From Prochloron sp. (GTDB lineage Bacteria > Cyanobacteriota > Cyanobacteriia > Cyanobacteriales > Prochloraceae), in assembly GCA_965198675.1 (NCBI GenBank), contig OZ240666.1, positions 3,172,776-3,236,775 of the forward strand: a DNA stretch of 64,000 nucleotides, read 5' to 3'. The notes below the pieces were generated by a model that worked only from the letters and a program-made list of their open reading frames with translations, was not told the DNA's origin and made no database searches. The position numbers and the translations under genes were made by a program. The stretch's first letter is position 1. Each line of letters starts with the position of its first letter. Positions 743 to 62,402 of the stretch are shown here, piece after piece.

Positions 743-3353
743 GTGCGGCTCGTTCCCTGTGAAAGCTGAGGCGTAAGCCAAACATAAGCAGGGGCTTGGT
801 TTTGGGACATCGGGACTGTTAATCTAAGCCACCGAAAGGGGCTGAAAAACAGAACTCTGAGTCACTACCTGAGCGCTAGACCCGCAAGGGAAATGCGAGG
901 GAAATTAGGAGAACTAAAGTGGAACTCCGAAACTCTAAGGCAGTGATTACCGAACCATGACAACTGAATGAATTATGAGAGTGAGGACACGGTCAGGAAT
1001 CGTGAAACCAAGTCTCTCCCGCGTGGGAATCGCGTGAATCCTTATCTGGCCACAGTGAGGTTAATCACCAGGCTGAAGCTGGCAACAGGGCGGTAAAGTG
1101 CGACCGAACGGTTAGGTAGAGATACTTCCGCTAATAGGGAGAACACAGGGATAACTTAACGTGAATCATCTGAGAAAAGACCTAAGTTCCGACACTGTCG
1201 GAAGGCCGTTATATACGACAGAAGAGACACCGAATAAAGACTCGTAAGGGTAAGTGTTTGCCACTTACATTCCTGAGTTGGTAGTGGGTCAAAGGGTGAG
1301 TCCCCAAGGGTTCGTAACAATAGTTCATTCGGAACGAGTAAAAACTCGCTCGACTTCGACTAAAACAGGGGATTCCAAGCCCAACATGTGAGGTGGTGGG
1401 GCTGCTTGATTAACAGCCTAACGGAAGAGCGAGGGTAAGAGAGGGCGTAACTGCCCGAGGGTTTCTAAAGAGAAGACACACAATGTAATTATCAGAGCGA
1501 ATTAAGGAGCTTAAGCTGTGCAAAGCACTAAGGTAGCCCCAATCGAATACCGCAGCATAGAGGATTTAAAACTTCACCTTGCAGTATTCCTGCGGGGTAG
1601 AAAGATAAGTCTGAAGGCTGACGATGTCTGGAAAGATTTGCCGTGGAAGCGATTCCGGGGTCAGGTCTTTCGATTACAGAGGAGTATCTTCAAAGCGCTT
1701 GCATACAATCAGAAAGTTAAGGTCAAACTCTTACAACGGCTTCTATTGAGAAGTCGTGCAGCTCAAGCTTTGGCCGTCAAACAAGTAACACAGCTGAATC
1801 AAGGGAAGAAGACCCCCGGAGTTGATGGAAAAACTGCACTCTCTACACGAGAGCGTCTGGTGTTGTGTCAGAGGCTAAATAAGCACTGGTACCACTGGAG
1901 ACACCAACAACTAAGAAGGGTAAACATCCCCAAGCCTAACGGCAAAACACGAGGATTAGGCATACCAACAATAGCAGACAGAGCATGGCAAGCGCTGCTT
2001 AAATTAGCAGCAGAGCCAGCTTATGAAGCTATAGCCGGGGAAAGAAGCTACGGCTTCAGACCCGGTCGCTGTACTGCGGACGCACAGAAGCTAATATTTG
2101 ACAACCTAAAAAGCAAGGCTAAGGGTAAGGATAAGCTGGTTCTGGAGACGGATATCAGTAAATGCTTCGACGAGATTGACCACAAAGTCATACTCAAAGG
2201 CGTTATCTTACCAACTGAAGCCAAACTAGGTTTGAAAATTGCGGTTAAAGCTGGTGTCCGTGGTGAATACCCCTCCAGTGTGAAGGGCACGCCGCAAGGT
2301 GGAGTGATATCCCCATTACTGGCAAATATAGCCCTAGATGGATTCGAGAACCTAGGGTCAGACCAAATTACGAGAACCCAAAAATACCACAAAGGTAAAA
2401 AGAATGGGTTTACAAAATCTGAAAGTATAAGGGGTATACGTTACGCGGATGACGCGGTCTTTATCTGTAAATCAAAAGCTGATACCAAAAAGCTGAGGCG
2501 AGATATAGACGAATTTCTCAAGTCCAGAGGGCTAAGAATAAACGAAGATAAGACTGAGATGAGGAGAGCTACGGATGGATTTGACTTTCTGGGATGGCGT
2601 TTTCGCGTCAACTCACGAGGAACATTTAAATCCGCACCGAGCCAAAAGAATTATGCGGAAATAAAGGCCAAAGTTAAAGCAACCTGGAAGAACAAAGAGT
2701 TGAGCACAGAAGCTCGGCTAAAGAAAATAGGAACACAGGTCCGTGGCTGGAGGAATTACCATAAATTCTGCGATATGTCAAAACACGCTCTATGGTCACT
2801 GCGCCAATGGTTATGGCGCAAACTAAGGGCAGATAAACGCAGGCAAGACCAAAAGGAGGCCGAAAAAGCGCGTCGTCAAGCCATTGAAGGTAAGAAGGCG
2901 AAGAAGGGAGCAGCAAAGCGCCAGCTCACGAAAGAGCAGGTGGATAAAGCATTTCCTAAAGTTTCCTGGGAAGTGAATAGTCACGTAATGGTCAAAGGTA
3001 GTGCCTCACCCTTCAATGGGAATATAGCCTATTGGGTTGGTCGGAACTCTGAACTTTATGAGGGATCAACCGCTAAAGCTATTAAGCGACAGAAAGGGAA
3101 ATGTACGCATTGCAACCGATTGTTCATGGAGATAGATGGTCCGGTGGAGTTGCACCACAAAGACGGGGACCACAACAACTGGGATATGAAAAATCTAGTT
3201 GCTCTTCATAGGGAATGTCACCAAGCTCAGACGATTCATCGGAAGAGAATTAAAGACGGACTCGTAAAGCGCGCCGTAAAGGCATAGAGATACCTGAGCT
3301 GTATGAGGTGAAAGTCTCACGTACAGTTCGTAGGAGAGGGGCGAGGTGGTAAC
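743..3353 (+). mobile_element. group II intron (bacterial, ORF-containing) interrupting the ThiF/nitroreductase gene
   Basis: 5' GTGCGGC at 743. Domain V GAGCTGTATGAGGTGAAAGTCTCACGTACAGTTC at 3296-3329. A short domain VI ends ...GGTAAC at 3353. An RT/maturase ORF sits in domain IV. Candidate EBS1 GTGAGG (981-986) pairs with exon-1 end TCTCAC (737-742). Removal restores the host reading frame. Confidence 0.9.
1518..3287 (+). CDS. group II intron-encoded protein: reverse transcriptase / maturase / HNH endonuclease
   Basis: GTG start preceded by AAGGAG. RT motifs are present, including IRYADDAVFIC (YADD). A maturase X region follows (GWRNYHKFC). The C-terminal HNH reads CTHCN…HHKDGDHNNWDMKNLVALHRECH. 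Confidence 0.95.
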   Translation: MQSTKVAPIEYRSIEDLKLHLAVFLRGRKISLKADDVWKDLPWKRFRGQVFRLQRSIFKALAYNQKVKVKLLQRLLLRSRAAQALAVKQVTQLNQGKKTPGVDGKTALSTRERLVLCQRLNKHWYHWRHQQLRRVNIPKPNGKTRGLGIPTIADRAWQALLKLAAEPAYEAIAGERSYGFRPGRCTADAQKLIFDNLKSKAKGKDKLVLETDISKCFDEIDHKVILKGVILPTEAKLGLKIAVKAGVRGEYPSSVKGTPQGGVISPLLANIALDGFENLGSDQITRTQKYHKGKKNGFTKSESIRGIRYADDAVFICKSKADTKKLRRDIDEFLKSRGLRINEDKTEMRRATDGFDFLGWRFRVNSRGTFKSAPSQKNYAEIKAKVKATWKNKELSTEARLKKIGTQVRGWRNYHKFCDMSKHALWSLRQWLWRKLRADKRRQDQKEAEKARRQAIEGKKAKKGAAKRQLTKEQVDKAFPKVSWEVNSHVMVKGSASPFNGNIAYWVGRNSELYEGSTAKAIKRQKGKCTHCNRLFMEIDGPVELHHKDGDHNNWDMKNLVALHRECHQAQTIHRKRIKDGLVKRAVKA

Positions 3354-5268
3354 ACCTCCCTCGACTCTAATTAAAAAGCGCATCGGCATTGTTGGACTTT
3401 CTGTAGGGCACAGCATCGCTATAGGGTTGGGGTTAGAAAGGTGTTTCGGAGAACTGCGTCTGGCTGATTTTGATACCATCGATCTCTCCAATCTTAATCG
3501 CATCAATACACCCATTCACAATATTGGGGTCAACAAAGCGATTGTTGTCGCCCGTGAACTATTGGAAATCGATCCTTATCTCAACATTTCATGTTATCCC
3601 GAGGGCATTAACACGAAAAACATAGAAGACTTCTTGTGTCGAGATGGTCAGCTAGATCTGCTTATCGATGAGTGTGACAGCATCGACATTAAGTTTAGTC
3701 TCCGCTACGCAGCGCGAAAACAGCATATTCCTGTACTAATGGACACCAGCGACAATGGACTTATAGATGTGGAACGATACGATCTCGAACCGAATCGCAA
3801 GCTATTCCATGGTCTTGTGGAGGAAGTTTCTCCCGAAAAGATGAGAGGATTGTCCAATCGCGAGAAAGTACCCTATGGTTTGGCAATACTTGGGATAGAT
3901 GGAGTTTCTGACCGACTGCAACTCTCCCTCTTGGAAATAGAGAGCACCGTTTCCACATGGCCACAACTAGGTTCTGCTGTCTTGCTTGGTGGTGGGGCTG
4001 CCACTGATACTACTCGACGTATATTACTGGGACAGTCCATACAGTCTGGAAGGTATTCTCTTGATTTGAATCAGATAATCAGATGCGGCAGCATTCCTGA
4101 ATCAACACATTCCGGCAAAGAAGAACCAGGTTTTCAATGGTTTGCTAAGAAGCAAATACAAAGTCTGCCACCAGTTTCATCAACTGCCGGTACCATGCCG
4201 TCGATGCCGATGCTTCGTGACTTGATTAGGGTGGCTTCCCTTGCACCTTCTGGGGGAAATTCCCAACCATGGCTCTGGGTATCCACCAACCATGGGCTCC
4301 ATCTCTTCCTCGATCCCCGCACCAAAGCAACATTGATAGATTTTTGGAATTTAGGGAGCACCCTAGCCCTTGGAGCAACGGCGGAAAGTTTCATTCTTGC
4401 AGCCGGGAAATCGGGACTTGGAGTCAGTAGAGAAGAGTTCTGCCCATCCCTTTTTCCTGTTGCCCGATTCACCTTTCCCATAGGCGAACCTAACGTATCT
4501 AACTGCGAACTCGCCGAAGGACTTACCCATAGGACCACTAATCGCAGCAATTTGCCATCCGATCCCTTACCCACCGATCTGGGGGAGAGAATCGATGGGA
4601 TTCTAGCTCCGTTTTCAGGGGTTCACTGTAGGATCGTAACAGATCCAGAAGTGATAACAGCCATTGGCAGGATAGCCGGTGAAGCTGACCGTTTACGCTT
4701 TCTCAACTCAGCCGCTCATGGCGAAATGATGGAGGAACTACGTTGGGATTCTGAAGAGGCAGAGCGCACTCGCGATGGCATCGAGGTAGCTCACTTGGGG
4801 CTGGATGAGATAGATCTTTGCGGCTTGCAGGTACTTCGCAACCCAAAGATAGTGGCAGAAGCTAACAAATGGGGTATTATGGGGGCAAATCTCGTGAAAG
4901 GGGCACAAACTGCCTTTAATAATTCAGGCGGTGTCGGGCTCTTATTCGTTGAAAAGCCCACTTGCCCAGACTTTTTCATAGCTGGGCGAGCATTGATGCA
5001 CCTCTGGTTATATCTTGAGAAGTGTGGTTTTGGGCTGCACCCTTGGACGGCGTCTATTTATTTTATCATGCGTTTTGTGCAGGAAAAAGGCCTAGGTTTT
5101 AGCCCATCTGAACAACGTTCCCTGTCCGTGCTTCGAGAGGAGTTCCACCGGTGCTTTGGTCTCGATGGGTCCCAGGGGCTAGCAGTTATGTTTCGGATCA
5201 CAACATCCCCCAAACCTATGGGTCGCTCAAAGCGCAAGTCAGTAGACGATATTCTAATTACCTACTAA
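3354..5268 (+). CDS. ThiF/E1-like + nitroreductase fusion protein, exon 2
   Basis: Contains the ThiF-type dinucleotide fold (IGIVGLSVGHSIAIGL…DFDTIDLSNLNR). This is followed by nitroreductase-like repeats (LASLAPSGGNSQPW…; RTTNRS…; HPW…). The spliced product would be about 760 aa. Confidence 0.75.
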
Positions 5269-7514: not shown

Positions 7515-8567
7515 CTACAGTAGTTGCTGATATTTAGGATCGCCTTGAAGTTGTTTGAGAACCTGTTTTATTTCCTGGGTGCGGTGTTTATTCACTACTA
7601 AGGTAACATTTCCATCCCGCACAATGACCACATCTTCTAAACCAATAGTTACTATAGCCTCTTTTTCATTACTGCTATAAATAATCGCTCCTTTTGTATC
7701 TCTTCCCACGTGGTTTGCTAAGGTGATATTTTCTCCCTTTCCTGGTAATAATCTTTCCAAGGAAGACCAGTCTCCCAGGTCGTCCCAACCGAAGTTAACA
7801 GAGAGCACATAGGCTAATTGGGTTTTCTCCATGACAGCATAGTCAATGCTTTTCTTCTCTAACTCTTTATAAGCGTCTTTCCCTTTTGTTCTCAAAAGTT
7901 GGATAATTTGCGGTGCGTGTATTTCTAGTTCCTGTAACATTACTTGAGGACGGAAGATAAACATACCGCTATTCCAACTATAGCGTCCGGTGTCTATAAA
8001 GGATATTGCTGTTGTCTTGTTGGGCTTTTCGGTAAAGCGACTCACTTTATAAACCGGTAACCCACCAAAATCACCTTCTTTTTCCCCTTGTTCAATATAA
8101 CCATACCCAGTAGAAGGGTAGTTAGGTTTTATTCCCAGAGTAACTACAGCTTGTTTGGTAACTGCTAGTTCTGTAGCTGCTTCAATAGTGCGGGCGAAAC
8201 CGTGGGTATCCCCTATCCAGTGGTCCGCAGGAAAAAAGCCCAGGGGTGTTTGACCGTGGCGTTGTGCTGCTTCTAGGGTAGCCCAAGCTACGGCAGGAGC
8301 TGTGTCTTTCCCTTCTGGTTCTATTAATAAGTTTTCTGCTGGTAATTCTGGTAACTGTTCTCTCACTCCCTGGGCAATTATAGCAGATGTCACTACCCAT
8401 AATTTATCCCAATTCCCTGCTAGGGGTAAGAGACGGTCTGCTGTTGCTTGGAGCAGGCTTTTGCCGCTACCATCGAGGGAAAGGAACTGTTTGGGGCGCT
8501 TTCTGCGACTGAGGGGCCAAAATCTTTCTCCTTTACCACCTGCGAGAATAATTGGAATTAGAGTCAT
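7515..8567 (-). CDS. manC: mannose-1-phosphate guanylyltransferase (nucleotidyltransferase domain only)
   Basis: N-terminal IPIILAGGKGERFWPLSRRKRPKQFL motif, with typical ManC/CpsB length and layout but no isomerase domain. Confidence 0.85.
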   Translation of the reverse strand: MTLIPIILAGGKGERFWPLSRRKRPKQFLSLDGSGKSLLQATADRLLPLAGNWDKLWVVTSAIIAQGVREQLPELPAENLLIEPEGKDTAPAVAWATLEAAQRHGQTPLGFFPADHWIGDTHGFARTIEAATELAVTKQAVVTLGIKPNYPSTGYGYIEQGEKEGDFGGLPVYKVSRFTEKPNKTTAISFIDTGRYSWNSGMFIFRPQVMLQELEIHAPQIIQLLRTKGKDAYKELEKKSIDYAVMEKTQLAYVLSVNFGWDDLGDWSSLERLLPGKGENITLANHVGRDTKGAIIYSSNEKEAIVTIGLEDVVIVRDGNVTLVVNKHRTQEIKQVLKQLQGDPKYQQLL

Positions 8568-8627: not shown

Positions 8628-10022
8628 TTATGAAAGAACTGGTAACTGAAAAGGATTTGCTGCTTCTAATTGGGCCGCTATTGCAATTATAGTGGCTTCT
8701 GCTGCTGGACGACCGATTAGTTGGATGGCTATGGGTAAACCATGGTGGTCAAAATTGCCTGTGGGAAGGGCGATCGCTGGTAGTCCGGTAGCATTTGCCA
8801 GGGGGTTGGGAGTCATCCAAGCAATCACTTTAGCGACGGTTTCTGGGGGAGGAACATGGTCCCACTCCCCAACTTTTATGGGTGAATGCATTAATACGGG
8901 AAGCAGGAGGACGTCAAATTTGTGGAAGAAAGCAATAATTTGCCTTGATACTATTTGCATTTTAGCAATTGCTCGCAAGTATTCTCCAGCGGAACCTGTT
9001 TGAGAAGCAAGCCAAGCGTTCATAGGACTCATGGCTGCTAGAGGAACTTCACTGCATGTCACTCCTGCTTGCCAAACTTGCTTAAAGGGTTCCACCAAAG
9101 GGGTCAAATCGGGACAGCTTTCTGTTATGATATGGCCCATAGCTGCCAAGGTCTGGGCTGTCTGTTCTACTGCCTGCTGATAAATCTCTACCGCAGCTCC
9201 TGTAGGTAGAACTGTACTGGAAAAGGCAATGCGCAACTGGGGTGGTTTTTGCTGGGCTGCTTCCAGGAAGGGGGTTTCCGGGTTGGGTAACCAATAGGGG
9301 TCTCCAGGAGCATAGCCTGCCATTACATCTAAGAGTGCTGCTGCATCGGCAACGGTATGAGCCAGGGGACCGTGGGTGGCGATGCCGTTTTGATAGTCTC
9401 CTAGGGGGGCATTAGATACCCTCCCTCTGGCTGGTTTTAGCCCCACTAAGCCACAACAAGCTGCGGGAATGCGAATTGAGCCTCCTCCGTCGGAACCGTG
9501 GGCTATGGGGCATAAACCTGCGGCTACGGCTGTGGCTGCTCCCCCACTAGAACCGCCGGAAGTGTGATGGGGATTCCAGGGGTTGCGGGTGGGAGGGAAA
9601 CCTGGGGGTTCCGTATAAGGTAAGGAACCGAGTTGGGAGGTGGCGGTTTTACCTAAAATAACGAATCCAGCCTTTTTCATCCGGGTTACTACCCCTTCAT
9701 CATACTTAGCTATGTTATGTTTTAGTGCTTGGACGCCATAGCTAGTCGGCACTTCAGATAGATTGTATAAATCTTTTATGGCAGTGGGAACGCCGAAAAA
9801 AGGAGTTTTTGGGGGATCGGTTTGAGCTAGTTGTTCTGTTTTTCTTCTAGCATCATCCAGTGCAAGTTCGGCGATGATAGTAGAGAAACTGCCTAACTGA
9901 GGATCGAACTGTTCAATGCGATCCAGATAGAGTTGGGTTAATTCTAAAGGGGATACCTCGCGATTTTTAATTAGTTTTGCTTGCTCTAAAGCTGAAGTAA
10001 AGGCTAAATCAGTTTTATTCAT
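8628..10022 (-). CDS. amidase (amidase-signature family, GatA-like)
   Basis: Amidase signature segment GGSSGGAATAVAAG…GSDGGGSIRIPAACCG in a 464-aa protein. Confidence 0.85.
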   Translation of the reverse strand: MNKTDLAFTSALEQAKLIKNREVSPLELTQLYLDRIEQFDPQLGSFSTIIAELALDDARRKTEQLAQTDPPKTPFFGVPTAIKDLYNLSEVPTSYGVQALKHNIAKYDEGVVTRMKKAGFVILGKTATSQLGSLPYTEPPGFPPTRNPWNPHHTSGGSSGGAATAVAAGLCPIAHGSDGGGSIRIPAACCGLVGLKPARGRVSNAPLGDYQNGIATHGPLAHTVADAAALLDVMAGYAPGDPYWLPNPETPFLEAAQQKPPQLRIAFSSTVLPTGAAVEIYQQAVEQTAQTLAAMGHIITESCPDLTPLVEPFKQVWQAGVTCSEVPLAAMSPMNAWLASQTGSAGEYLRAIAKMQIVSRQIIAFFHKFDVLLLPVLMHSPIKVGEWDHVPPPETVAKVIAWMTPNPLANATGLPAIALPTGNFDHHGLPIAIQLIGRPAAEATIIAIAAQLEAANPFQLPVLS

Positions 10023-11444: not shown

Positions 11445-12375
11445 TTAAACAAACTGGAAACTATCTGCTGTGAGGTTATCAATTCCTTCGAGAATGAGTA
11501 AGTCTTGAGGAGCACCCCCTATATTAGCAGCAATGGTAGTATTACCTTCCTCTACGGTTAAAGTCAAGTCAGCAAACTCATTCAATTCCTGGTCAACATT
11601 ATTGCCAATACTAATTATATCTCCATCTTCCACACTGAAGTCGGTGATAGTGTTAGCCCCAGCGGGTAATTCCCCACTGACGATAATAAATGTGTCAGCA
11701 CCTTCATTCCCTTGGATGGTATTATTACCACCAGTATTGAGAGAGAAACTATCGTCACCACTACCTCCGAAGACAGTGTCGTTTTGACGGAGGGAGAATA
11801 AGTCGTCTCCCTCGTTACCGAAGAGATAATTCTCACCCCCTCCAGCATTACCTTCCAGAGTGTCATTTCCCAACCCCCCCCACCAGGACATCTCCGGTTC
11901 CGGCAATTAATTCATCGTTGCCTTCATTTCCGTAGAGACGGTTCCCACCAGCTCTTTGAGAGGCGTCCAGAATATCATTCCCCAGCTCCCCGAAGACGCG
12001 ATCGTTGGTTTCAGCAAAAATTCGGTCATTTTCTGAACCTGCATAGAAGCGATCTGGAGCGGTGAAATTAGCTACAACGGCATCGATTTGGTCAACTCCT
12101 GCTCCTGTAAAGGTAATTTGAGCATTAGGGGTGAGTTCTGGTTCCAACACGTCGTCTCCGGGAGTTGTGAAGACCAGTTTTGGTGCTTCATCGACATTCG
12201 TTAAACTAACCGTTACCGTAGCTGTATCGGACAATCCTCCCTGGTCTGTTACAGTTACAGTGAGAGGAAAACTGGTAGTTGTCTCAAAGTCCAACTGACT
12301 GCTATCTGCTACAGTTATTGCTCCTGTAGCTGTATCAATAGTAAAGGCTCCAGATTCGTTCGGGTCGAAGGAGTG
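11445..12375 (-). pseudogene. cadherin-repeat / RTX calcium-binding protein, exon 2 (frameshifted at a G8 run)
   Basis: Cadherin-like segment …[31 protein letters not shown]…VTVTDQGG. It is followed by GGxGxD nonapeptides ([39 protein letters not shown]). Two overlapping ORFs are joined by a 1-nt shift at 11874-11881. Confidence 0.7.
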
Positions 12376-13129
12376 GTCACCCACCCCATCCCTGTAGGAA
12401 CCGTGCATGAAACTTTCGCCTCACACGGCTCCTATGACCTATGGGTTGAAACAAGCCTTTTAGAAGGCTAAAAAACCCTTTGATTACCTCTATCCAGCTG
12501 GTACTGGGGGTTGTGGCAATCTTCGCTTTTTACTATTCCATTTCAGTTTCCTGATTCCTACTCGGATTTACCAGAGCCTTAATTTCGGAATTAGTTTAAT
12601 TTCCTACTCGGCTTTCATCTTACCTGGACCTTAAATTCAGAACTAGGTTATCCTCATCATCCGTATCTCTACGGTGGAATCGGCTATATTTCAGCCACAG
12701 GCGTCCCTATTAGTTAGTAAATTCAGCTCTCGGTCATTGCGGGCAATTGTTTAGCTATTAGCTTTCGTTCCCGCGTCCTACCCGAATGGCCTCGATAGAA
12801 GTATGCCTGCCTTCCCTCTTCGGGTACCACCCCTGGAAGAGAGAACCATTCGTTTTTCCTCGTTCCAAATTAGAAATTGTTTTGAATCTTTAGGTCTCAC
12901 CAGTTCGCCTACCGACCCCCTAAGGAAGCTGCTATCAGTACAATAACGCAGCAGGGTTTTGATTATCGGTTAAGAAGTCCATTAAGGAGGAGGTTGCCTC
13001 TAAACTGAACGCTGTACTCTCACCAATAAGACGCTTTTTCCGGTGATTCGCTTCACCTATTTCTAGGATACCTGTTACACCGAAGGTGCCGCCCTTGGCG
13101 TCCCATGGATTCTCCTCATTAGCAGCAGT

Positions 13130-35148: not shown

Positions 35149-36519
35149 CTACAGTTTTGTTTCTAATTCTTGACGCAGTCGATAAATAATCGTATTCGGT
35201 TCAACAGTAGCGAGAATATCTTGAATAACAGTACTCGGTCCCAAATTTCCCCAACTACAACCCCTTTCTAAATATTTTACCGCCACTTTCCCCACTGCAT
35301 AAGCCCCATATCCAGCAATACCTCCTTGAGTAAGAGCAGTACTTGCATAAGCAGTCAAAGCAGCAGGACTTTCCCACATGGTAACTACTGTACTCTTTCC
35401 CAGTCCTAAAACAAAGCTACTACCAATTTCCCCTAAGAGCAAACTGCCAGAACTCAGGAGTATCTTACGCCAAAGTTTCCCGGCGTCTTTACTGGTCATA
35501 GGTAAACCATATAACTTTGCCAGAGAGCGAATCAAGCCTAAATCAGTTATCATTCCCCCCAGGATATCTAAGAGAGGGATAGGATTAACTGCAACTGCGA
35601 AAGCCTTATATTGGGCATATTTCCAGATTATCTCCTCTGCTTCTTCTCGACGCAATGCAATGGTCTTCTGAGCAATATTTGTTTCGGCGGAGCGCCCTTG
35701 CATGAGAGCATTTAAAGCTAAGAGCGATCGCCCTTCCCGGTTCAAAATCTGGAGAATTATCCCTCGCAATTCATCTATTTGTGGTGGTTGCGGTTCCCAT
35801 TCTTGGGTTACCCTCCCATCCGCCCATTCTACCCGCACTGGTAAGGGTGAGGGTTCCGCAGCTACCATGGCAATTTCCGAACTGGTTAATAATTCTTCTA
35901 CTCCTGTACCAGTTCCCAATGCTTGTAATTGGCGGTAAATGGACTCTCTGTCTTGCTCAGGGTAGAGGTCGATTTTGTTAAATACCAGTATGAGGGGTTT
36001 TTGACTTCTTCGCAGTTCTGATAATGCCTCATATTCAGTACGGGTAATATCTCCAGCTACCACAAAGAGAATTAAATCTGCTTCCTGCGCCACTTCCCGC
36101 GCCATTTCAGCCCTTGTTTCCCCTTCAATTTCATCCAAACCCGGGGTATCGATTAATTCTACCTGTACCTTACCACTGCTGGGGGTCCAACACACGGATT
36201 TTGGCCATTTTGTAACACCATGAAGTGGTCCCGTGGGCATTACTTTGTCTCCTAATAAGGCGTTTATGATGGCTGATTTACCCCGGCTGACTAAGCCAAA
36301 AGTGGCAATGTGAATTACTTTTTGGTCTAGTTTAGCCAAGGCAGATTTTAATGCTTGTAAATCTGGGCGTACTGCTCCTTGCAATTCTACATTGGGAAGA
36401 TGATTTTTCCCGTGACGCCCAAAACTAGAATACCAAGACATTGCTCGCTGTAAACTAGCGCGCGCTCTTGTAAAGTGGGTTTCTTGTTGGCTTTGACTCA
36501 AGGTTAGGGGTTGGTACAA
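35149..36519 (-). CDS. GTP-binding protein with C-terminal DUF697-like membrane region
   Basis: G1 GLVSRGKSAIINAL, G3 DTPG, G4 NKID. It is a paralog of 62403-63827. Confidence 0.8.
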   Translation of the reverse strand: MYQPLTLSQSQQETHFTRARASLQRAMSWYSSFGRHGKNHLPNVELQGAVRPDLQALKSALAKLDQKVIHIATFGLVSRGKSAIINALLGDKVMPTGPLHGVTKWPKSVCWTPSSGKVQVELIDTPGLDEIEGETRAEMAREVAQEADLILFVVAGDITRTEYEALSELRRSQKPLILVFNKIDLYPEQDRESIYRQLQALGTGTGVEELLTSSEIAMVAAEPSPLPVRVEWADGRVTQEWEPQPPQIDELRGIILQILNREGRSLLALNALMQGRSAETNIAQKTIALRREEAEEIIWKYAQYKAFAVAVNPIPLLDILGGMITDLGLIRSLAKLYGLPMTSKDAGKLWRKILLSSGSLLLGEIGSSFVLGLGKSTVVTMWESPAALTAYASTALTQGGIAGYGAYAVGKVAVKYLERGCSWGNLGPSTVIQDILATVEPNTIIYRLRQELETKL

Positions 36520-36696
36520 TTTTTGGGAATGAAAGTTTCACGCAGAGGCGCAGAGGCGCAGAGAGGCACGGAAAGTCATTGTACCTATATATTAGCAAGT
36601 CTTGACAGATTAGATTGTAAACATTTGTAACAAATACTTTAAATCCCCTTGACAGTCTCTGTATTTGCATTATATTATGGAATAAATCAAAAACCT

Positions 36697-36834
36697 GCGA
36701 CAGGTGGCGGAATGGTAGACGCGATAGTTTAAAAAAATCTTGATTCACATCTTGCTTGAAAAGGCCGTAGAGTTGAGAGTTATCGGAAACTATTAACTGT
36801 TTAGTTGTGGAGGTTCAAATCCTCCTCTGTCGCA
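36697..36834 (+). ncRNA. tRNA-like / Y-RNA-like chimeric RNA, unit 1 (Leu-type scaffold)
   Basis: Promoter is TTGACA 36649-36654 with TATATT about 17 nt downstream. The acceptor is GCGACAG/CTGTCGC and the D arm is GGCGGAATGGTAGACGC. A long variable hairpin reads AACT-GTTT-AGTT and the T arm is GGAGGTTCAAATCCTCC. A 7-bp stem ATAGTTT/AAACTAT carries a divergent Ro-type hairpin (CTTGCTTGAAAAGGCCGTAGAGTTGAGAGTTATCG). A T-run follows. Confidence 0.6.
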
Positions 36835-36932
36835 CTTTCGAGTTATTTTAATCCAATGCTTGAATTTGAGATTTTTTTGACCCAACCCCTTGACCAATGA
36901 ATTATTATTGTAGTAAACTGTAAATAAGTAGA

Positions 36933-37032
36933 TGGCGGGATGGTCGCCCTTATTCATTCCTTGCCTGACAAGGCCGCAGAATGAGGTTTATCGTTGGTAA
37001 AGACAATGCGGGTTCGACCCCCGTCCCCGCCG
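36933..37032 (+). ncRNA. tRNA-like / Y-RNA-like chimeric RNA, unit 2 (truncated, no D arm)
   Basis: Promoter is TTGACC 36890-36895 with TAAACT. The terminal stem is GGCGGG/CCCGCC. The module is CCTTATTCATTCCTTGCC-TGACAA-GGCCGCAGAATGAGGTTTATCG. The T arm is GCGGGTTCGACCCCCGT, followed by CATTTTT. Confidence 0.45.
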
Positions 37033-37299
37033 CTCCCATTTTTCTCAAATTACCTCTATAGCAGTGAGCACGTACCTTGACAGTTACCAGTACTAATGAC
37101 TAGTTATAGCAATGTCCCGAAAGCTTTATACCACTGTCATTGAGCTAACTTCGTGCAGATGTATATCCAAGTTTAATCTGTAACTCAAGAGTGCGCGAAT
37201 CGCTCTATCTCAAAATTAGATTGTAAATATTTATTACAAATGCTTGAACCCCCTTGACAGTTACTGTATTTCCAGTGTAATATAAAATATATAAACCTT

Positions 37300-37434
37300 T
37301 GGCGGAGTAGCTTAAATGGATAGAGCATTTGTCCAGATTCCTTATTCGTTTCTTGCCCTAGGGGCCGAAGAATTGAGGATTATCGACTCCTGGCTTTACC
37401 GGGAAAGATGCGGGTTCGACTCCCGTCTCCGCCA
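37300..37434 (+). ncRNA. tRNA-like / Y-RNA-like chimeric RNA, unit 3
   Basis: Promoter is TTGACA 37254-37259 with TAATAT 37278-37283. The stem is TGGCGGAG/CTCCGCCA and the D arm is GCTTAAATGGATAGAGC. The module is TTCCTTATTCGTTTCTTGCCC-TAG-GGGCCGAAGAATTGAGGATTATCG. The T arm is GCGGGTTCGACTCCCGT, followed by a T-run. Confidence 0.6.
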
Positions 37435-37510
37435 TCAATATTTTTCTCTTACCTCTTGACAAGTAAAATATGTTTGTAGTAAAATTAGAATAGAGAAGTT
37501 AATAAAGCTT

Positions 37511-37629
37511 GTGGCGAGTAGCCAAGTGGTAAGGCAGTTTCCTTGTTCGTTCCTTGCCCCATGGGCCGAAGAATTGAGGATTATCGTTTTGGGAACGACT
37601 ATTCGGGGGTTCGACTCCCCCTTCGCCAC
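37511..37629 (+). ncRNA. tRNA-like / Y-RNA-like chimeric RNA, unit 4 (retains a UGG anticodon hairpin)
   Basis: Promoter is TTGACA 37456-37461 with TAAAAT 37480-37485. An 8-bp stem GTGGCGAG/TTCGCCAC is followed by TA and the D arm GCCAAGTGGTAAGGC. The Ro-type module is present. The anticodon-like hairpin is TCGT-TTTGGGA-ACGA and the T arm is GGGGGTTCGACTCCCCC. A T-run follows. Confidence 0.7.
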
Positions 37630-37707
37630 CTTCATTTTTTTTTAATTACCTCTTGACAAATGAAATATGTTTGTAGTAACATTAGAATATAAAAGTTAAT
37701 AAAGTTT

Positions 37708-37839
37708 GTGGCGAGTGGCCGAGTGGTCAAAGGCGAGTTGTTTTTACTATCCCTTGTTTATTCCTTGCCCTATGGGCCGAAAAATTGAGGGTTATCAAAC
37801 TTGATTATATCTTCGGAGGTTCAAATCCTTCCTCGCCAC
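37708..37839 (+). ncRNA. tRNA-like / Y-RNA-like chimeric RNA, unit 5 (Ser/Leu-type D arm)
   Basis: Promoter is TTGACA 37653-37658 with TAACAT 37677-37682. The stem is GTGGCGAG/CTCGCCAC and the D arm is GGCCGAGTGGTCAAAGGCG. A stem AGTT/AACT carries the module CCCTTGTTTATTCCTTGCCC-TAT-GGGCCGAAAAATTGAGGGTTATC. The T arm is GGAGGTTCAAATCCTTC. Confidence 0.65.
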
Positions 37840-37913
37840 CTTCATTTTTATCCAATTACCTCTTGACAGTAAAAATATGTAGTAAAATAAGAATACAGTC
37901 ATTAATAAAGCTT

Positions 37914-38011
37914 GTGGCGAATCGTCTAGAGGCCTAGGACACTTATCCTTATTCGTTCCTTGCCTTACGGGCCGAAGAGGAGAGACGGGGGTTCGAATCC
38001 CCCTTCGCCAC
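37914..38011 (+). ncRNA. tRNA-like / Y-RNA-like chimeric RNA, unit 6 (Glu-type D arm, 3' half of module deleted)
   Basis: TTGACA 37863-37868 is only 14 nt from TAAAAT. The stem is GTGGCGAA/TTCGCCAC and the D arm is GTCTAGAGGCCTAGGAC. The module is truncated after GGGCCGAAG. The T arm is GGGGGTTCGAATCCCCC. Confidence 0.5.
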
Positions 38012-38089
38012 TTTCATTTTTTTTTAATTACCTCTTGACGAATGAAATATGTTTGTAGTAACATTAGAATATAAAAGTTAATAAAGTTT

Positions 38090-38210
38090 GTGGCGAGTAG
38101 CTCAGTGGTAGAGCGAGTTTTCCTTATTCATTCCTTGTCTAATGGGCCGAAGAATTAGGATTATCGACTTATAAGCGACTTGATCGGGGGTTCGATTCCC
38201 TCCTCGCCAC
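38090..38210 (+). ncRNA. tRNA-like / Y-RNA-like chimeric RNA, unit 7 (UAU anticodon-like loop)
   Basis: Promoter is TTGACG 38035-38040 with TAACAT 38059-38064. The stem is GTGGCGAG/CTCGCCAC and the D arm is GCTCAGTGGTAGAGC. The Ro-type module is present. The hairpin TCGA-CTTATAA-GCGA has one mismatch. The T arm is GGGGGTTCGATTCCCTC. Confidence 0.7.
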
Positions 38211-38288
38211 CCCATTTTTATCAAATTACCCCTTAACAAATAAAATATATGTGTAGTAAACTAAAAATATAAAAATTTATAAAATTGG

Positions 38289-38421
38289 TGGCGAGTGGCT
38301 GAGTGGTTGAAAGCAAGTTATTGTAACTTATCCTTGTCCTGATCCTTGGTTGCTTCTTTGCCCTAGGGGCCGTAAATTGAGGGTTATCTAAGGGATCGGG
38401 GGTTCGAATCCCCTCTCGCCA
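38289..38421 (+). ncRNA. tRNA-like / Y-RNA-like chimeric RNA, unit 8
   Basis: Promoter is TTAACA 38233-38238 with TAAACT 38257-38262. The stem is TGGCGAG/CTCGCCA and the D arm is GGCTGAGTGGTTGAAAGC. A hairpin AAGTTA-TTG-TAACTT precedes an expanded module (…CTTCTTTGCCC-TAG-GGGCCGTAAATTGAGGGTTATC). The T arm is GGGGGTTCGAATCCCCT. Confidence 0.6.
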
Positions 38422-38501
38422 GTTTCAATTTTTTTCCAATTACCTCTTGACCAATGAAACATATGTGTAGTATAATTAAAATATAGAGATTAATAAAGCA
38501 T

Positions 38502-38622
38502 GTGGCGAGTAGCTCAATGGTAGAGCGAGTACTCCTTGTTCATTCCTTGCCCTAGGGGCCGAAGAATGAGGATTATCGACTCATAATCGACTAGGTAGGG
38601 GGTTCGATTCCTTCTTCGCCAC
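38502..38622 (+). ncRNA. tRNA-like / Y-RNA-like chimeric RNA, unit 9 (retains a CAU anticodon hairpin)
   Basis: Promoter is TTGACC 38447-38452 with TATAAT 38471-38476. The stem is GTGGCGAG/TTCGCCAC and the D arm is GCTCAATGGTAGAGC. The module is TCCTTGTTCATTCCTTGCCC-TAG-GGGCCGAAGAATGAGGATTATCG. The hairpin TCGA-CTCATAA-TCGA has a canonical Met-type loop. The T arm is GGGGGTTCGATTCCTTC. Confidence 0.7.
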
Positions 38623-38644
38623 ACCATTTTTCTCAAATTCCCCC

Positions 38645-38674
38645 TTGACACTTGAAGTCTTAATGTAGTATAAT
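38645..38674 (+). promoter_or_regulatory. tenth copy of the array promoter, positioned to drive the Ro60/rsr gene
   Basis: TTGACA (38645-38650), an 18-nt spacer, then TATAAT (38669-38674). It has the same context (…AATTCCCCCTTGACA…GTAGTATAAT) as the promoters of units 4-9. Confidence 0.6.
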
Positions 38675-38816
38675 AGGAGTATAAAGCAAAATAAGGAGGA
38701 TTGAGATAAGAGAAGTGAAAAGCGATCGCCTTGGAGAGCCACTAAGGATTTGCAAGGCAATATCACTGGGAAGGTGGGCGATGCCCACCCTACGAAACTC
38801 TTCTGCCCCAAACCAA

Positions 38817-38844
38817 TTTTTGCCTGAAAAGGCTGTAGAATAAA
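38817..38844 (+). promoter_or_regulatory. Ro-module-like hairpin in the rsr 5' UTR, ending 6 nt before the ATG
   Basis: TTTTTGCC-TGAAAA-GGCTGTAGAATAAAA resembles the module cores of unit 1 (CTTGCT-TGAAA-AGGCCGTAGAG) and unit 2 (CTTGCC-TGACAA-GGCCGCAGAATGAGG). Confidence 0.35.
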
Positions 38845-38850
38845 ACAACA

Positions 38851-40158
38851 ATGAATTATCAGTTTTTTACTCAAAAAAAGACAGGAACGCCTCAAAATAA
38901 ACCCATACCGGGACGGGAAGCGGAGATGATTCAAGGGCGCTCCGGGGGCTTCATGTTCGATGCTGGCATTTGGCAAATGCTGCGACGCTGCTTGCTTATT
39001 GGCACAGCTCAAAGCACCTACTATGCAGGAAAGAAAGAATTAACAGAAGATTTTGTCCAAGTTATTAAAGAGGCGATCGCTACTAACCCGAATAAAGTAG
39101 CAGAAAAAATAGTCTACGCTAGTGACGGTAAGGCTATCAATAATAGCGCCCCTTTATTTGCTTTGGTACTCTTATCTATGGGAGCAACACCAGAAGCAAA
39201 AAAGGCATTTCAGGAAATCTTTCCCCAAGTAGTTCGCACTGGAAGTCATTTTTATGAATGGTTGAGCTACACCAAAGCTCTGAGAGGATTTGGGAAGGTA
39301 GTGCGAGAAGTGGGGAGGCAATGGTTATCTCGGGAAAATGTTAAAAATTTAACTTATCAACTACTGAAATACCAACAGCGTCACGGCTTTTCTCATCGGG
39401 ATGCTTTGCGTCTATTTCACGTTCAACCTCCTACGGAAGAGCATAACCAATTGTTTCGTTGGGTAGTCAAAGGTTGGGATGAACTGCCAACAGAAATTCC
39501 CAGGTCAGCACTGGCTCAAATTTGGTGGTATGAGTGGTTGAAACGGAACCCTAATAAAACCCATGAGGCGATTGCCAAAGGTAACCTCACCCACGAAATG
39601 GTTGCCCCAGTAGGGAAAATGGATAAGCAAGCATGGCAATTATTATTTGATAAAATGCCCATTGGTGCAATGCTGCGGAACTTAGGTTCTCTGACGGAAC
39701 TAGGAGTACTCCGGGCTGACACACCAGGTAATTTAGACAGGGTGGAAGGAGTACTCAACAATTCTATCTATCTACGTAAAGGAAGAATCCACCCTATAGA
39801 CGTACTTAAAGCCTTGAAAACTTATCAATCTGGAGGTAGAATCGGGAGGAGCAAGAAAACCTGGAACCCAGTAGGGCGGATTGTGGATATCTTAGAAAAG
39901 GCAGTGGAATTGTCTTTTGATGTGGTGGAACTTACAGAGAAGGTATTCATGCACGCGGTGGATATATCCGGTTCCATGTCTTGTGGTGTGGTGGAGTCAG
40001 TAGGAATGAGCTGCTGCGAGATTGCCACTACTATGGCATTAGTTACAGCTAAGGCGGAGAAAAACTACGCTATTAGGGGATTTTCCACCAAGTTCCGCGA
40101 TTTGGGTATCTCTAAAAAAGATAGCTTTAGGAGTGCAATCGCCAAAGCTAGCAATTAA
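38851..40158 (+). CDS. rsr: Ro60/Rsr ortholog (TROVE domain + start of vWA domain), terminated by an in-frame TAA
   Basis: TROVE-like N-terminal region (…QGRSGGFMFDAGIWQMLRRCLLIGTAQSTYYAGKKELT…). The vWA MIDAS start is AVDISGSMS. The stop at 40156-40158 is in the same frame as the next ORF. Confidence 0.8.
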   Translation: MNYQFFTQKKTGTPQNKPIPGREAEMIQGRSGGFMFDAGIWQMLRRCLLIGTAQSTYYAGKKELTEDFVQVIKEAIATNPNKVAEKIVYASDGKAINNSAPLFALVLLSMGATPEAKKAFQEIFPQVVRTGSHFYEWLSYTKALRGFGKVVREVGRQWLSRENVKNLTYQLLKYQQRHGFSHRDALRLFHVQPPTEEHNQLFRWVVKGWDELPTEIPRSALAQIWWYEWLKRNPNKTHEAIAKGNLTHEMVAPVGKMDKQAWQLLFDKMPIGAMLRNLGSLTELGVLRADTPGNLDRVEGVLNNSIYLRKGRIHPIDVLKALKTYQSGGRIGRSKKTWNPVGRIVDILEKAVELSFDVVELTEKVFMHAVDISGSMSCGVVESVGMSCCEIATTMALVTAKAEKNYAIRGFSTKFRDLGISKKDSFRSAIAKASN

Positions 40159-40455
40159 AACTTTGGAGGTACTGACGCCTCTGTGGCTTATGATTGGATG
40201 ATAAAGAATAAGTTCAAAGCTGATATCATCTGTTTTTGGACAGATAGCGAAAGTTGGGCTGGTAATAGTCATCCTGCTCAAGCATTAGCTAAATATCGTC
40301 AGAAGGTGAATGAGAATATTAAGGCAGTATATGTCACTCTTGCTCCCTATGGTATTACCTTAGTAGATCCAAAAGACCCCTTATCTTGGGATTTGGGTGG
40401 ATTTGATCCAGGAATACCTCGTCTCATCCAAATGCTGGCTCAAGGAGAAGTTTAA
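40159..40455 (+). CDS. rsr: remainder of Ro60/Rsr vWA domain (same frame, downstream of the TAA)
   Basis: NFGGTDASVAYDWMIKNKFKADIICFWTDSESWAGNSHPAQALAKYRQ… is the conserved Ro C-terminal vWA segment (GGTD, TD.E). The whole gene would be 534 aa if the TAA were a sense codon. Confidence 0.7.
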   Translation, partial: NFGGTDASVAYDWMIKNKFKADIICFWTDSESWAGNSHPAQALAKYRQKVNENIKAVYVTLAPYGITLVDPKDPLSWDLGGFDPGIPRLIQMLAQGEV

Positions 40456-61667: not shown

Positions 61668-61846
61668 GTCTGTCAGCACCCCGCGCTAAATCTCCGGGCT
61701 GCTCGAGCCTCAGAGCATGAAGCTGCGAGACCAGTCTAAGTCGCAACGAGCGGCTACGTTTTTTGAGTCACGACACCCACGAATGCGTCGCTAGTTCATG
61801 GCCCTGTCGCTTGCGACTAAACAGTTTTACGAGGGGTAAGACAGTG
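61668..61846 (+). ncRNA. candidate structured sRNA (6S-RNA-like extended hairpin), speculative
   Basis: TATAAT lies at 61660-61665. The 5' TGTCT…CCCC pairs with the 3' GGGG…AGACA. An internal helix forms between CATGAA…GCGA and TCGC…TTCATG. The candidate is divergent from purF. No sequence-family match could be verified by eye. Confidence 0.2.
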
Positions 61847-62402
61847 TTGCAAGCCTAACAAACTCTTAAAACAAAGACTCATGCGAACTTAACCCTAGCA
61901 ATAGGAGTATTACGATTAGGGGACAATCTATCTGTATTCATCTGTGTTCATCTGCGTGCATCTGCGGTTCAAAAATTGCCACTTATGTCGGTAGAATTGC
62001 CACTAGAGCAACTGGTTCTTTTGATGTTGCCACTGTCAAGGGGAGGATTTCAGGGATTAGCTACAAATATTGTCAAGCCATTCATCGTTCATGATGGATA
62101 CAGTTACCAATTTCACGGCGGATAAATCCGCCGAGTCGAACTTCCTGGGCGAGTTAAAACATCGCGGCTTCCGTTCTCCCGAAAAATATCGTGATAAATG
62201 TCTGTAACCGCTGGGCTATTGAATCTCCCACGAAGGAAACAGCTTGGATTATCGAACAAGCACTCAGAACAATCAAGAAAAAGGGGTGTCAGGAGGGATA
62301 GGGGCAGAAATGTTGAATCTATAAAAATTATCAATTATCAATTTTTGGGTGTCTATTGCCGTGCCCCCACCACACACCCTACATCCCTTGGCATAAATTT
62401 GT

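Follow-up and report, generated by a model that had tools for sequence, protein, structure and literature searches.

The YrlA RNAs, a known class of Y RNAs, have been described as permuted tRNA-like molecules in which the T arm lies 5′ of the D arm, the acceptor-like stem is closed into a stem-loop and the molecule ends in the Ro stem, and they are said to have neither a free CCA end nor an anticodon loop (Chen et al. 2014, PMC4201824; Wang et al. 2018, bioRxiv 10.1101/312249). The likely Ro60 contact of bacterial YrlA is the motif GNCGAAN0-1G, and the sequence YUAY begins the "V" region or loop, the V stem-loop being located upstream of the T arm (PMC4201824). Processing of the tRNA type has been documented experimentally for one member, the YrlA of Mycobacterium smegmatis, and cyanobacterial YrlA have been described as having a much longer acceptor stem (Chen et al. 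2014, PMC4201824; Wang et al. 2018, bioRxiv 10.1101/312249). Here, we analyse a stretch of 64,000 nucleotides (nt) from Prochloron sp. (contig OZ240666.1, positions 3,172,776 to 3,236,775; hereafter, the window), in which nine tandem small-RNA units of about 100–138 nt each are located on the forward strand (36697–38626), upstream of a Ro60 (rsr) gene. Units 4, 7 and 9, and with them the rest of the array, are most probably Ro60-binding Y RNAs of the YrlA class laid out in the native order of a tRNA; our proposal for how they work is made with lower confidence.

The cyanobacterial units share with YrlA the same-strand linkage to rsr over a few kilobases, a GNCGAA-type motif in a bulged helix, the YUAY junction, and D and T arms that possess the nucleotides of tRNA tertiary interactions, including a covarying Levitt pair. 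Unlike YrlA as published, however, they have the D arm in front of the T arm; an open acceptor stem with free ends, often of 8 base pairs (bp) and with N-CCA encoded behind it; a small loop that closes the Ro helix; and a complete anticodon arm with an anticodon-type loop of 7 nt. Each locus holds 3–12 copies. Literature searches for cyanobacterial Y RNAs returned nothing relevant.

Fold of units 4, 7 and 9 and of their relatives

A preliminary description of this DNA held that, in units 4, 7 and 9, a Ro-type hairpin is set into the 5′ strand of the anticodon stem, behind its second pair, and leaves the anticodon arm in place. The positions and sequences that it gave for the three units match the window DNA, and both these sequences and an alignment of 115 related units agree with the proposed arrangement. 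In unit 4, G-1 (37511) and the acceptor 5′ strand (37512–37518) are followed by the D arm (37521–37535), A26 and G27 (37536–37537) and the Ro module; then come the hairpin proper (37584–37598), a CT (37599–37600) that pairs with the AG preceding the module, the variable loop ATTC, the T arm (37605–37621), the acceptor 3′ strand (37622–37628) and C73 (37629). Removal of the 46-nt module yields cloverleaves of 74–76 nt, which ARAGORN identifies as tRNA-Pro(tgg) for unit 4, tRNA-Ile(tat) for unit 7 and tRNA-Met(cat) for unit 9. The expectation that module-deleted units would score as tRNAs was borne out in all 3 window units and in 115 of 115 relatives, with ARAGORN rather than with a covariance model; in the intact window, by contrast, ARAGORN calls no tRNAs. 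The Rfam tRNA model places 6 of the 9 intact units above its gathering score (36–45 bits), reading 48–74 nt of the anticodon region in the matched units as an insert, and an Rfam scan of positions 35500–39500 with E-values up to 10 returned, besides this model, weak chance matches only and no Y-RNA family.

Unit 7 arose recently by duplication of unit 9; units 6 and 7 have no counterparts in the closest genome (locus L001), and the UAU loop of unit 7 is most simply attributed to a C34-to-U change. In Paraprochloron SP5CPC1, the unit nearest to rsr (L002, 7–126), compared with two units of the closest genome (L001, 7437–7569 and 7841–7960), combines a D arm of the unit-9 type with an anticodon hairpin and variable loop of the unit-4 type (UUUGGAU, CCAUUC), a mosaic that suggests recombination between array members.

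The relatives come from 80 cyanobacterial loci retrieved with the Ro60 protein, in which matches to a covariance model built from the window units (R1) were accepted at E < 0.01. R1 produced 350 matches and nhmmer 376, every one of them on the Ro60 strand. The arrays occupy the 3 kb or so upstream of rsr, and a further unit follows the gene closely; the units score 37–122 bits with R1, compared to at most 34 bits for genuine tRNAs. Parsing by the T arm and acceptor pairing gave 318 units; the distinct units number 307, and 115 units with the design of a hairpin plus 7-nt loop were aligned (A4). A pattern scan of viral contigs for the module gave five matches, none of which the covariance model accepts as a unit.

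In the commonest design, found in about 150 units, the 19–23 nt between UUA and the T stem form a hairpin with a 7-nt loop. Across the 115 aligned units, the pairing of cloverleaf plus module holds in 91.7% of cells, compared with 40–50% when the partners are slid, and changes on both sides are seen in 27 of 38 pairs, against 11.5 ± 1.6 in shuffles (0 of 500 shuffles reach 27); the shuffle control ignores the kinship of the units, but the slid-partner control, which corrects for it, also falls far short. Both pairs that bridge the module vary, 27:43 being C-G in 102 units, G-C in 4, U-A in 3 and A-U in 2, and 28:42 being C-G in 63 and U-A in 43, as does pair 31:39 (C-G in 52, A-U in 48, U-A in 10). 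The G26·A44 mismatch is present in 93 of the 115 units, and the hairpin is followed by a canonical 5-nt variable loop (AGGUC or AUGUC), the last base of which, C48 or U48, is the Levitt partner. In the Lys/Asn-like lineage, the module follows pair 3 instead, and an extra G before the module pairs with C41, because C41 cannot pair with the usual C29. In minimum free energy folding, unit 4 adopts the proposed fold, whereas units 7 and 9 do not. The cloverleaf-plus-module fold is proven by the comparative data and not by thermodynamic prediction alone. The placement of the module within the anticodon stem is a general design that is not peculiar to this window, and what had been described as chimeras is the design of the family rather than a local oddity.

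The homologous arrays also keep the anticodon-type loops, a point on which the preliminary description had staked its claim: among 104 distinct units, the 7-nt loops have U33 in 100, a purine at position 37 in 102 and a pyrimidine at position 32 in 87, and positions 35–37 are held within lineages. The triplets vary by lineage (AGG 25, GCC 23, UCC 11, UGG 9, CAU 6, GAU 6, CGG 5, with UUU, CUU and GUU also present); AGG is the commonest Pro-like one, and UAU, UUA, 6-nt loops and deletions occur as well. Within three large lineages, minor-allele cells number 19 at position 32, 0 at 33, 34 at 34, 8 at 35, 6 at 36, 2 at 37 and 5 at 38; that is, the architecture of the loop and positions 35–38 are held, whereas the wobble position 34 drifts. 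The acceptor end (U1:A72 and G-1:C73) is uniform across Pro-, Gly-, Lys- and Ile-like loops, and, with position 34 the most variable of the loop, the units lack the identity elements that would mark a decoding tRNA. Decoding is unlikely because position 34 is free, triplets such as AGG, UAU and UUA are present, all lineages share one atypical type of acceptor end, and some loops are decayed. The conservation of U33 and of positions 35–38 suggests that the loop is read by something.

Ro60 motif, RNA ends and relation to YrlA

The modules of units 3, 4, 6, 7 and 9 contain GCCGAAG, which fits the published contact motif; among the 307 distinct units, 121 have the strict form and 261 a relaxed GNCGA type. 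In 304 of the 318 parsed units, the motif is followed by a junction of the YUAY form, which is UUAU in 300 of them, UUAC in 3 and CUAU in 1. A loop of 3–5 nt closes the Ro helix, the apical stem of which shows covariation at 4 of 4 pairs. Neither U8 nor A14 varies, and the Levitt pair 15:48 is G:C in 99 units and A:U in 9. On the same strand, 229 nt separate the end of unit 9 from an open reading frame (38851–40158) with a TROVE domain (E = 9.5e-17) and a Ro60 vWA domain, well within the 4 kb that characterise YrlA genes; the protein is about 80–93% identical to cyanobacterial TROVE/Ro60 proteins, with the best matches in Prochloron and Paraprochloron genomes. Given the Ro60 motif in the hairpin and the position of the array next to the Ro60 gene, the units therefore appear to belong to the YrlA class. 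Judging by their sequences, they are a topological variant of this class rather than canonical members, with the D arm preceding the T arm and the acceptor strands at the ends of the unit instead of the permuted order.

An extra G-1:C73 pair, noted previously in units 4–7 and 9, is indeed there and is found in unit 1 as well. In the larger set, 190 of 307 distinct units have this pair and 181 have an 8-bp stem with both U1:A72 and G-1:C73. After C73, N-CCA follows in 79 of these 181 units (ACCA in 70) and CCA follows directly, as at a tRNA-His-type end, in only 14, where about 1/64 would be expected. Units 7 and 9 are of the N-CCA type (...GCCAC-CCCA-TTTTT and ...GCCAC-ACCA-TTTTT, respectively, after the 8-bp stem); the statement that no CCA is encoded thus stands for unit 4 (CTTCA) but not for these two. 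A T-run lies downstream of 209 of the 307 units and after each unit in the window. The window region holds 24 promoter-like sites, compared to 5.8 ± 2.6 in shuffles, with one before each unit, and the −10 box ends 26 nt before G-1 in units 4, 5, 7 and 9. Spacers in Nostocales are as short as 26 nt, and these closely spaced units are likely to be co-transcribed and then subjected to tRNA-type processing.

In its architecture, each unit is a near-complete tRNA, with a free-ended acceptor stem, a D arm, an anticodon stem of 5 or 6 bp with a 7-nt loop, a 5-nt variable loop and a T arm; a bulged GNCGAA hairpin of about 46 nt emerges on the 5′ side of the anticodon stem, beyond pair 2, creating a three-way junction. 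We propose that the unit would be transcribed as a precursor with a leader of about 19 nt and trimmed by RNase P and by 3′-processing or CCA-adding enzymes, by analogy with the YrlA of M. smegmatis. Ro60 would bind the inserted helix, and the L-shaped tRNA body, including the anticodon arm, would serve as the effector end for tRNA-binding proteins. Presumably, the anticodon triplet is not used to decode, the loop being kept as a structural or recognition element, and the module would stay in the RNA. Excision is unlikely because the site lies inside a helix, the module is the most conserved part of the unit and it contains the Ro motif.

A canonical representative offers an instructive comparison. 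Mycobacteriophage ET08 encodes a YrlA that belongs to the founding members in Chen et al. 2014 (PMC4201824); it lies just upstream of the phage Ro gene and reads, in permuted order, from the Ro 5′ strand (...GGCCGAGAG...GGUUAC) through the hairpin CUC-AUUGAAA-GAG-AG, the variable loop AGGUC and the T arm to the closed acceptor stem, UA, the D arm, G-CU and UAAAC... (the Ro 3′ strand). Pairing between the CU that follows the D arm and the AG that follows the hairpin gives a 5-bp stem that is split after pair 2; as in the cyanobacterial units, the 7-nt loop has U33 and A37, G26 is present and the variable loop has 5 nt. The junctions match as well (GCU-UAAAC... and ...UUAC-CUC, with UUAC at the YUAY site), and the ET08 RNA, when re-permuted and freed of the module, is identified by ARAGORN as tRNA-Ser(tga). 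Because ET08 has a split anticodon arm of the cyanobacterial type, the published "V arm" looks like an anticodon arm, as far as this one canonical example goes. In the locus of Streptomyces phage Francob, read by eye, one unit fits the design and one has no hairpin. This phage carries several YrlA-like elements (L087, about 500–1900), with GGGUCGGA... motifs followed by T arms and then D arms, which lie upstream of its Ro gene and alternate with genuine tRNA genes of the phage.

With canonical tRNAs, the units have in common the cloverleaf order, U8, A14, G18 G19, the T-loop, G26·A44, the 5-bp anticodon stem, the 7-nt loop with U33 and R37, the 5-nt variable loop, the organisation into promoter, leader and trailer, and the CCA end; the G-1:C73 pair recalls tRNA-His and the 8-bp acceptor stem tRNA-Sec. 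Unlike canonical tRNAs, they bear a 46-nt hairpin on the anticodon stem, leave position 34 unconstrained, have the same acceptor whatever the anticodon, occur only beside rsr and are called by ARAGORN only when the module is removed. Most units also differ from tRNA-His, which has 8 bp and CCA, in having 8 bp, a discriminator and CCA. The occurrence of one fold in two gene topologies, related by circular permutation and plausibly connected through tandem duplication, has a parallel in red algae and archaea, some tRNA genes of which are circularly permuted (cited in Wang et al. 2018). Those, however, give true tRNAs after splicing and ligation, whereas, in the units and YrlA, both topologies appear to be end products and splicing is not implied. 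As in Deinococcus radiodurans Yrn1 and the metazoan Y RNAs, a Ro60-binding bulged helix is combined with an effector module, and in Yrn1 a T-arm-like loop is accompanied by what may be an "anticodon arm" of 5 bp with a 6-nt loop. Unlike the units, these RNAs have no full cloverleaf and end in the Ro stem; furthermore, PNPase is the known effector of Yrn1.

Derivation of the units from real tRNA genes, as suggested in the preliminary description, seems plausible from sequence resemblances. A genuine tRNA-Cys in locus L005 has exactly the D arm of unit 4 (UAGCCAAGUGGUAAGGCAG), and Nostocales units with this type of D arm have GCA (Cys) loops, decaying to AAA, shortened or lost. Module-deleted unit 9 is closest to E. 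coli tRNA-Ile2(CAU), with 82.5% identity over 56 nt including CGACUCAUAAUCG; module-deleted unit 4 has no match in E. coli. The body of a Gly-like Nostoc unit is generic, its best plasmid matches being tRNA-Arg and tRNA-Ser, and class I bodies are too generic for an isoacceptor test; the 80 fetched loci contain only four genuine tRNAs. A tandem array in tRNA order would be a trivial and plausible route to the permuted form of YrlA, in agreement with the dimeric-tRNA origin model cited by Wang et al. 2018 (bioRxiv 10.1101/312249).

Alternative readings and implications

The array could instead be read across neighbouring units, as canonical permuted YrlA, each composed of the Ro 5′ strand, hairpin and T arm of one unit, a stem formed by the acceptor 3′ strand, the spacer and the acceptor 5′ strand, and the D arm and Ro 3′ strand of the following unit. 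The longer acceptor stems published for cyanobacterial YrlA (Chen et al. 2014; Wang et al. 2018) are what one would get by reading across two adjacent units, the 26-nt spacers of Nostocales imply co-transcription, and, of 158 informative combinations of neighbours, 91 have acceptor strands that can form 6 or all 7 of the 7 pairs. However, the other 67 give at most 5 of 7, the test being only moderately informative because units share acceptor sequences, and the 3′ strand of unit 1 (TCTGTCG) cannot pair with GGCGGGA of unit 2. Furthermore, complete units in tRNA order stand at both ends of the arrays, the unit conserved upstream of rsr is followed not by a D arm but only by the rsr leader, 37 nt on, and a solitary unit is found downstream of rsr. 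With the closing loop and covarying apical stem of the Ro helix, a promoter and T-run in each window spacer, and N-CCA right after the acceptor 3′ strand, the permuted layout is very improbable for the units described here. A different objection concerns the hairpin after the module, which might be the variable ("V") arm, with the Ro helix being a true replacement of the anticodon arm and the likeness of the loops a coincidence. This would follow the published nomenclature, with the V stem-loop upstream of T and YUAY opening the V loop (PMC4201824), and the crystal structure of Salmonella Typhimurium YrlA, in which the Ro stem continues the position of the anticodon stem and no such hairpin is present (bioRxiv 10.1101/312249). 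Yet class II variable arms are short-looped, unlike the 7-nt loops with their nearly constant U33 and R37 and frequent Y32; the 2–3 nt after the D stem pair with those after the hairpin and complete a covarying 5-bp stem; the G26·A44 mismatch is in place, as is a separate 5-nt variable loop with the Levitt partner; and the class-II-like units (1, 5 and their relatives) have an additional, different hairpin in the variable position. Coincidence of this kind is very improbable in our view.

Some cyanobacterial tRNA genes contain introns, and tRNA-like sequences do emerge when the module is deleted, so the units might be taken for interrupted genes of tRNA-Pro, tRNA-Ile and tRNA-Met from which an intron-like element is removed. 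We consider this extremely unlikely: the insertion is in a helix, between 28 and 29 or 29 and 30 rather than 37 and 38; a simple bulged hairpin of 46 nt is far too small for a self-splicing intron; the Rfam intron families have no match at the module in the scan of 35500–39500; and a bulge-helix-bulge is not evident in the junction sequences read, although no dedicated search was made. Nor would an intron be expected to be the most conserved part of its gene and to contain the Ro60 motif, in genes that occur only beside rsr and show uniform atypical acceptor ends (8 bp, U1:A72), AGG, UAU and UUA triplets and some decayed loops. Very doubtful, too, is the possibility that the units, once matured by RNase P and at their CCA ends, are chargeable tRNA mimics, aminoacylated either through positions 35 and 36, as recognised by some synthetase, or by histidyl-tRNA synthetase through G-1:C73, with the aminoacyl group going to some Ro60-linked process. 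G-1:C73 is the main determinant for the bacterial histidyl enzyme, N-CCA or CCA is encoded, and positions 35–37 are conserved while 34 varies; but most units have an extra nucleotide between C73 and CCA, unlike tRNA-His, their discriminator and first pairs do not match the identity sets of Gly, Pro, Lys and Ile, and in some lineages the loops are decayed or lost (for example, L054 at 7481). Chen et al. 2014 (PMC4201824) noted that the M. smegmatis YrlA could in principle be aminoacylated.

Several points weigh against our own reading of the array as YrlA-class RNAs in tRNA order. The ends, the processing and the Ro60 binding of the cyanobacterial units are all deduced from sequence, and the conserved positions 35–37 hint at a function of the loop that lies outside the proposed explanation. 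The proposed folds sit 5–7 kcal/mol above the minimum free energy. With co-transcription in Nostocales, the published permuted reading may apply to precursors, and part of the design may already be described in the literature. Finally, the Ro60 gene of the window has a premature stop, a CAA-to-TAA change at codon 436 (Gln436 in homologs; ASN*NFGGTDAS in place of ASNQNFGGTDAS), after which the frame is intact to the normal stop at 40453–40455; this is either a nonsense mutation, making the gene a recent pseudogene, or a sequencing error. Together with the shortened unit 6 and the stem mismatch of unit 7, it indicates that this locus may be decaying.

It is conceivable, if on balance rather unlikely, that the anticodon arms are working parts, so that each locus would supply 3–12 mimics tethered to Ro60 (8 bp plus N-CCA), whose loops would be read by isoacceptor-specific proteins, with the "V arm" vestigial and the tandem order ancestral. 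The Pro-, Gly-, Lys/Asn-, Ile/Met-, Cys- and Leu-like loops would then be addressed by aminoacyl-tRNA synthetases, by enzymes that modify position 37 or by anticodon nucleases. In this way, certain enzymes that handle tRNAs would become targets of Ro60 or be decoyed by it, and even charging of the mimics is imaginable. As a corollary, the "V arm" of all YrlA RNAs would be a vestigial anticodon arm and the tandem tRNA-ordered genes of cyanobacteria would be the ancestral state; in other phyla, the permuted YrlA would go back to such an array in which the boundaries of the transcripts had shifted. Hughes et al. 2020 raised the idea of YrlA as a competitive inhibitor of an anticodon nuclease; by way of speculation, such an inhibitor would fit the anticodon-type loops better than the loop-less Salmonella RNA.

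The YrlA-class reading, for its part, would provide a simple structural rule for the family, a tRNA with one helix inserted at 28/29, which fits the canonical phage YrlA too. The tandem arrays represent a concrete evolutionary route between the two topologies, and the Prochloron array would reveal both how YrlA is built and its probable origin. These considerations bear on the role of YrlA and on the partners of its tRNA-like end, the candidate effectors being proteins that read positions 33 and 35–38. Culturable hosts with such loci include Chlorogloeopsis fritschii PCC 6912 and Calothrix and Nostoc strains.

Other units, the Ro60 gene and its leader

The features of the locus are collected in Table 1. 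Units 1, 5 and 8 have class-II-type D arms and extra hairpins; the D arm of unit 1 is presumably of the Leu type. Units 2 and 6 had both been regarded as truncated, which is correct for unit 6, a shortened copy, whereas unit 2 represents a conserved subtype that has no D arm. In Nostocales, this D-arm-less subtype also occurs alone just downstream of rsr (at about 9645–9800 of the loci), and it may be the counterpart of YrlB. The first element of Nostocales arrays (L027, 7099–7232; L071, 7447–7551; L007, 6438–6567) is a divergent type of unit, with a D loop that has no GG, the T loop UGAAAAU, and a lower Ro helix that is oriented as in canonical Y RNAs, with GGCCGACAUAUCGAGGG as the leading 5′ strand and CCUUGAU, about 25 nt downstream, as the 3′ strand.

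Table 1. Features of the Y-RNA array and of the Ro60 gene, in window positions
Feature	Position	Strand	Remarks
Tandem array of tRNA-shaped Y-RNA genes (units 1–9)	36697..38626	+	Covariance model R1 and nhmmer match 9/9; Rfam tRNA model, 6
Unit 1, class II, tRNA-Leu-like body (presumed)	36697..36834	+	D arm GGCGGAAUGGUAGACGC; long variable-arm hairpin; module at 3′ side of UUUAAAA loop
Unit 2, subtype without D arm	36933..37033	+	Acceptor strand leads straight into Ro hairpin; conserved elsewhere
Unit 3	37300..37434	+	7-bp acceptor stem GGCGGAG/CTCCGCC, A73; different junction with extra hairpin
Sigma-70-like promoter of unit 4	37456..37485	+	TTGACA-18-TAAAAT; −10 ends 26 nt before G-1
Unit 4, G-1 to C73	37511..37629	+	Cloverleaf, Ro module and anticodon-like arm; loop UUUGGGA (UGG); R1 121.5 bits
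Unit 4, Ro module	37538..37583	+	46 nt; motif per PMC4201824; apical helix covaries in 4/4 pairs
Unit 4, anticodon-like hairpin	37584..37600	+	TCGT-TTTGGGA-ACGA + CT; CT pairs with A26 G27 (37536–37537)
Unit 5	37708..37839	+	Class-II-like D arm; U-rich hairpin 5′ of module
Unit 6, shortened copy	37914..38011	+	No anticodon hairpin or lower Ro helix; promoter spacer 14 nt
Unit 7	38090..38210	+	Loop CUUAUAA (UAU); A·G mismatch at 31:39; then CCCA; recent duplicate of unit 9
Unit 7, predicted Ro60-binding module	38118..38163	+	
Unit 7, anticodon-like hairpin	38164..38180	+	TCGA-CTTATAA-GCGA + CT; hairpin 38164–38178
Unit 8	38288..38422	+	Class-II-like D arm; hairpin 5′ of module; no 3′ anticodon hairpin; G-1·G73
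Sigma-70-like promoter of unit 9	38447..38476	+	TTGACC-18-TATAAT
Unit 9, nearest to rsr	38502..38626	+	Loop CUCAUAA (CAU); 8-bp acceptor stem; tRNA body to 38622, ACCA 38623–38626
Unit 9, predicted Ro60-binding module	38530..38575	+	
Unit 9, anticodon-like hairpin	38576..38592	+	TCGA-CTCATAA-TCGA + CT; hairpin 38576–38590
Equivalent sigma-70-like sites of other units	36649, 37254, 37653, 38035, 38233, 38447	+	
Ro60 promoter	38645..38674	+	Perfect consensus TTGACA-18-TATAAT
Ro60 mRNA leader element	38817..38841	+	U-run, hairpin GCCUGAAAAGGC and UGUAGAAU; present in 71/73 loci
Ro60/Rsr ortholog, TROVE and vWA domains	38851..40455	+	In-frame TAA 40156–40158

The Ro60 mRNA itself carries a leader element related to the module. 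In the stretch 38817–38850, a U-run is followed by a 4-bp hairpin with a GNRA-type loop and then by (C/U)G(G/U)(G/A)AG, the window version being UUUUUGCCUGAAAAGGCUGUAGAAU and that of Nostoc UUUUUGCCCGCAAGGGCCGGGAGAUGAAG; in loci L001–L080, the element lies at about 7960–8000 and occurs in 28 distinct versions. The fourth pair of the hairpin is C-G in 16, U-A in 11 and U·G in 1, and the hairpin ends 14 nt before the ATG. The element copies the apical hairpin and the GNCG part of the Y-RNA module and, in most genomes, merges into the Shine-Dalgarno sequence, which suggests a candidate site for autoregulation by Ro60 of its own mRNA.

Elsewhere in the window, a HEARO RNA (124 bits) was found at 61672–61893, and group II intron domain V/VI matches at 3294–3371 on the forward strand and 12358–12433 on the reverse strand, consistent with a cyanobacterial genome rich in mobile elements. 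Among the other sequences examined, plasmid pNOS7524.01 of Nostoc sp. PCC 7524 (L084, 3002–5656) carries 20 tightly packed tRNA genes beside an HNH endonuclease gene. Several of these tRNA genes are unusual; one is called as tRNA-Pyl(cta), and another, a tRNA-Arg(acg), is 97 nt long.

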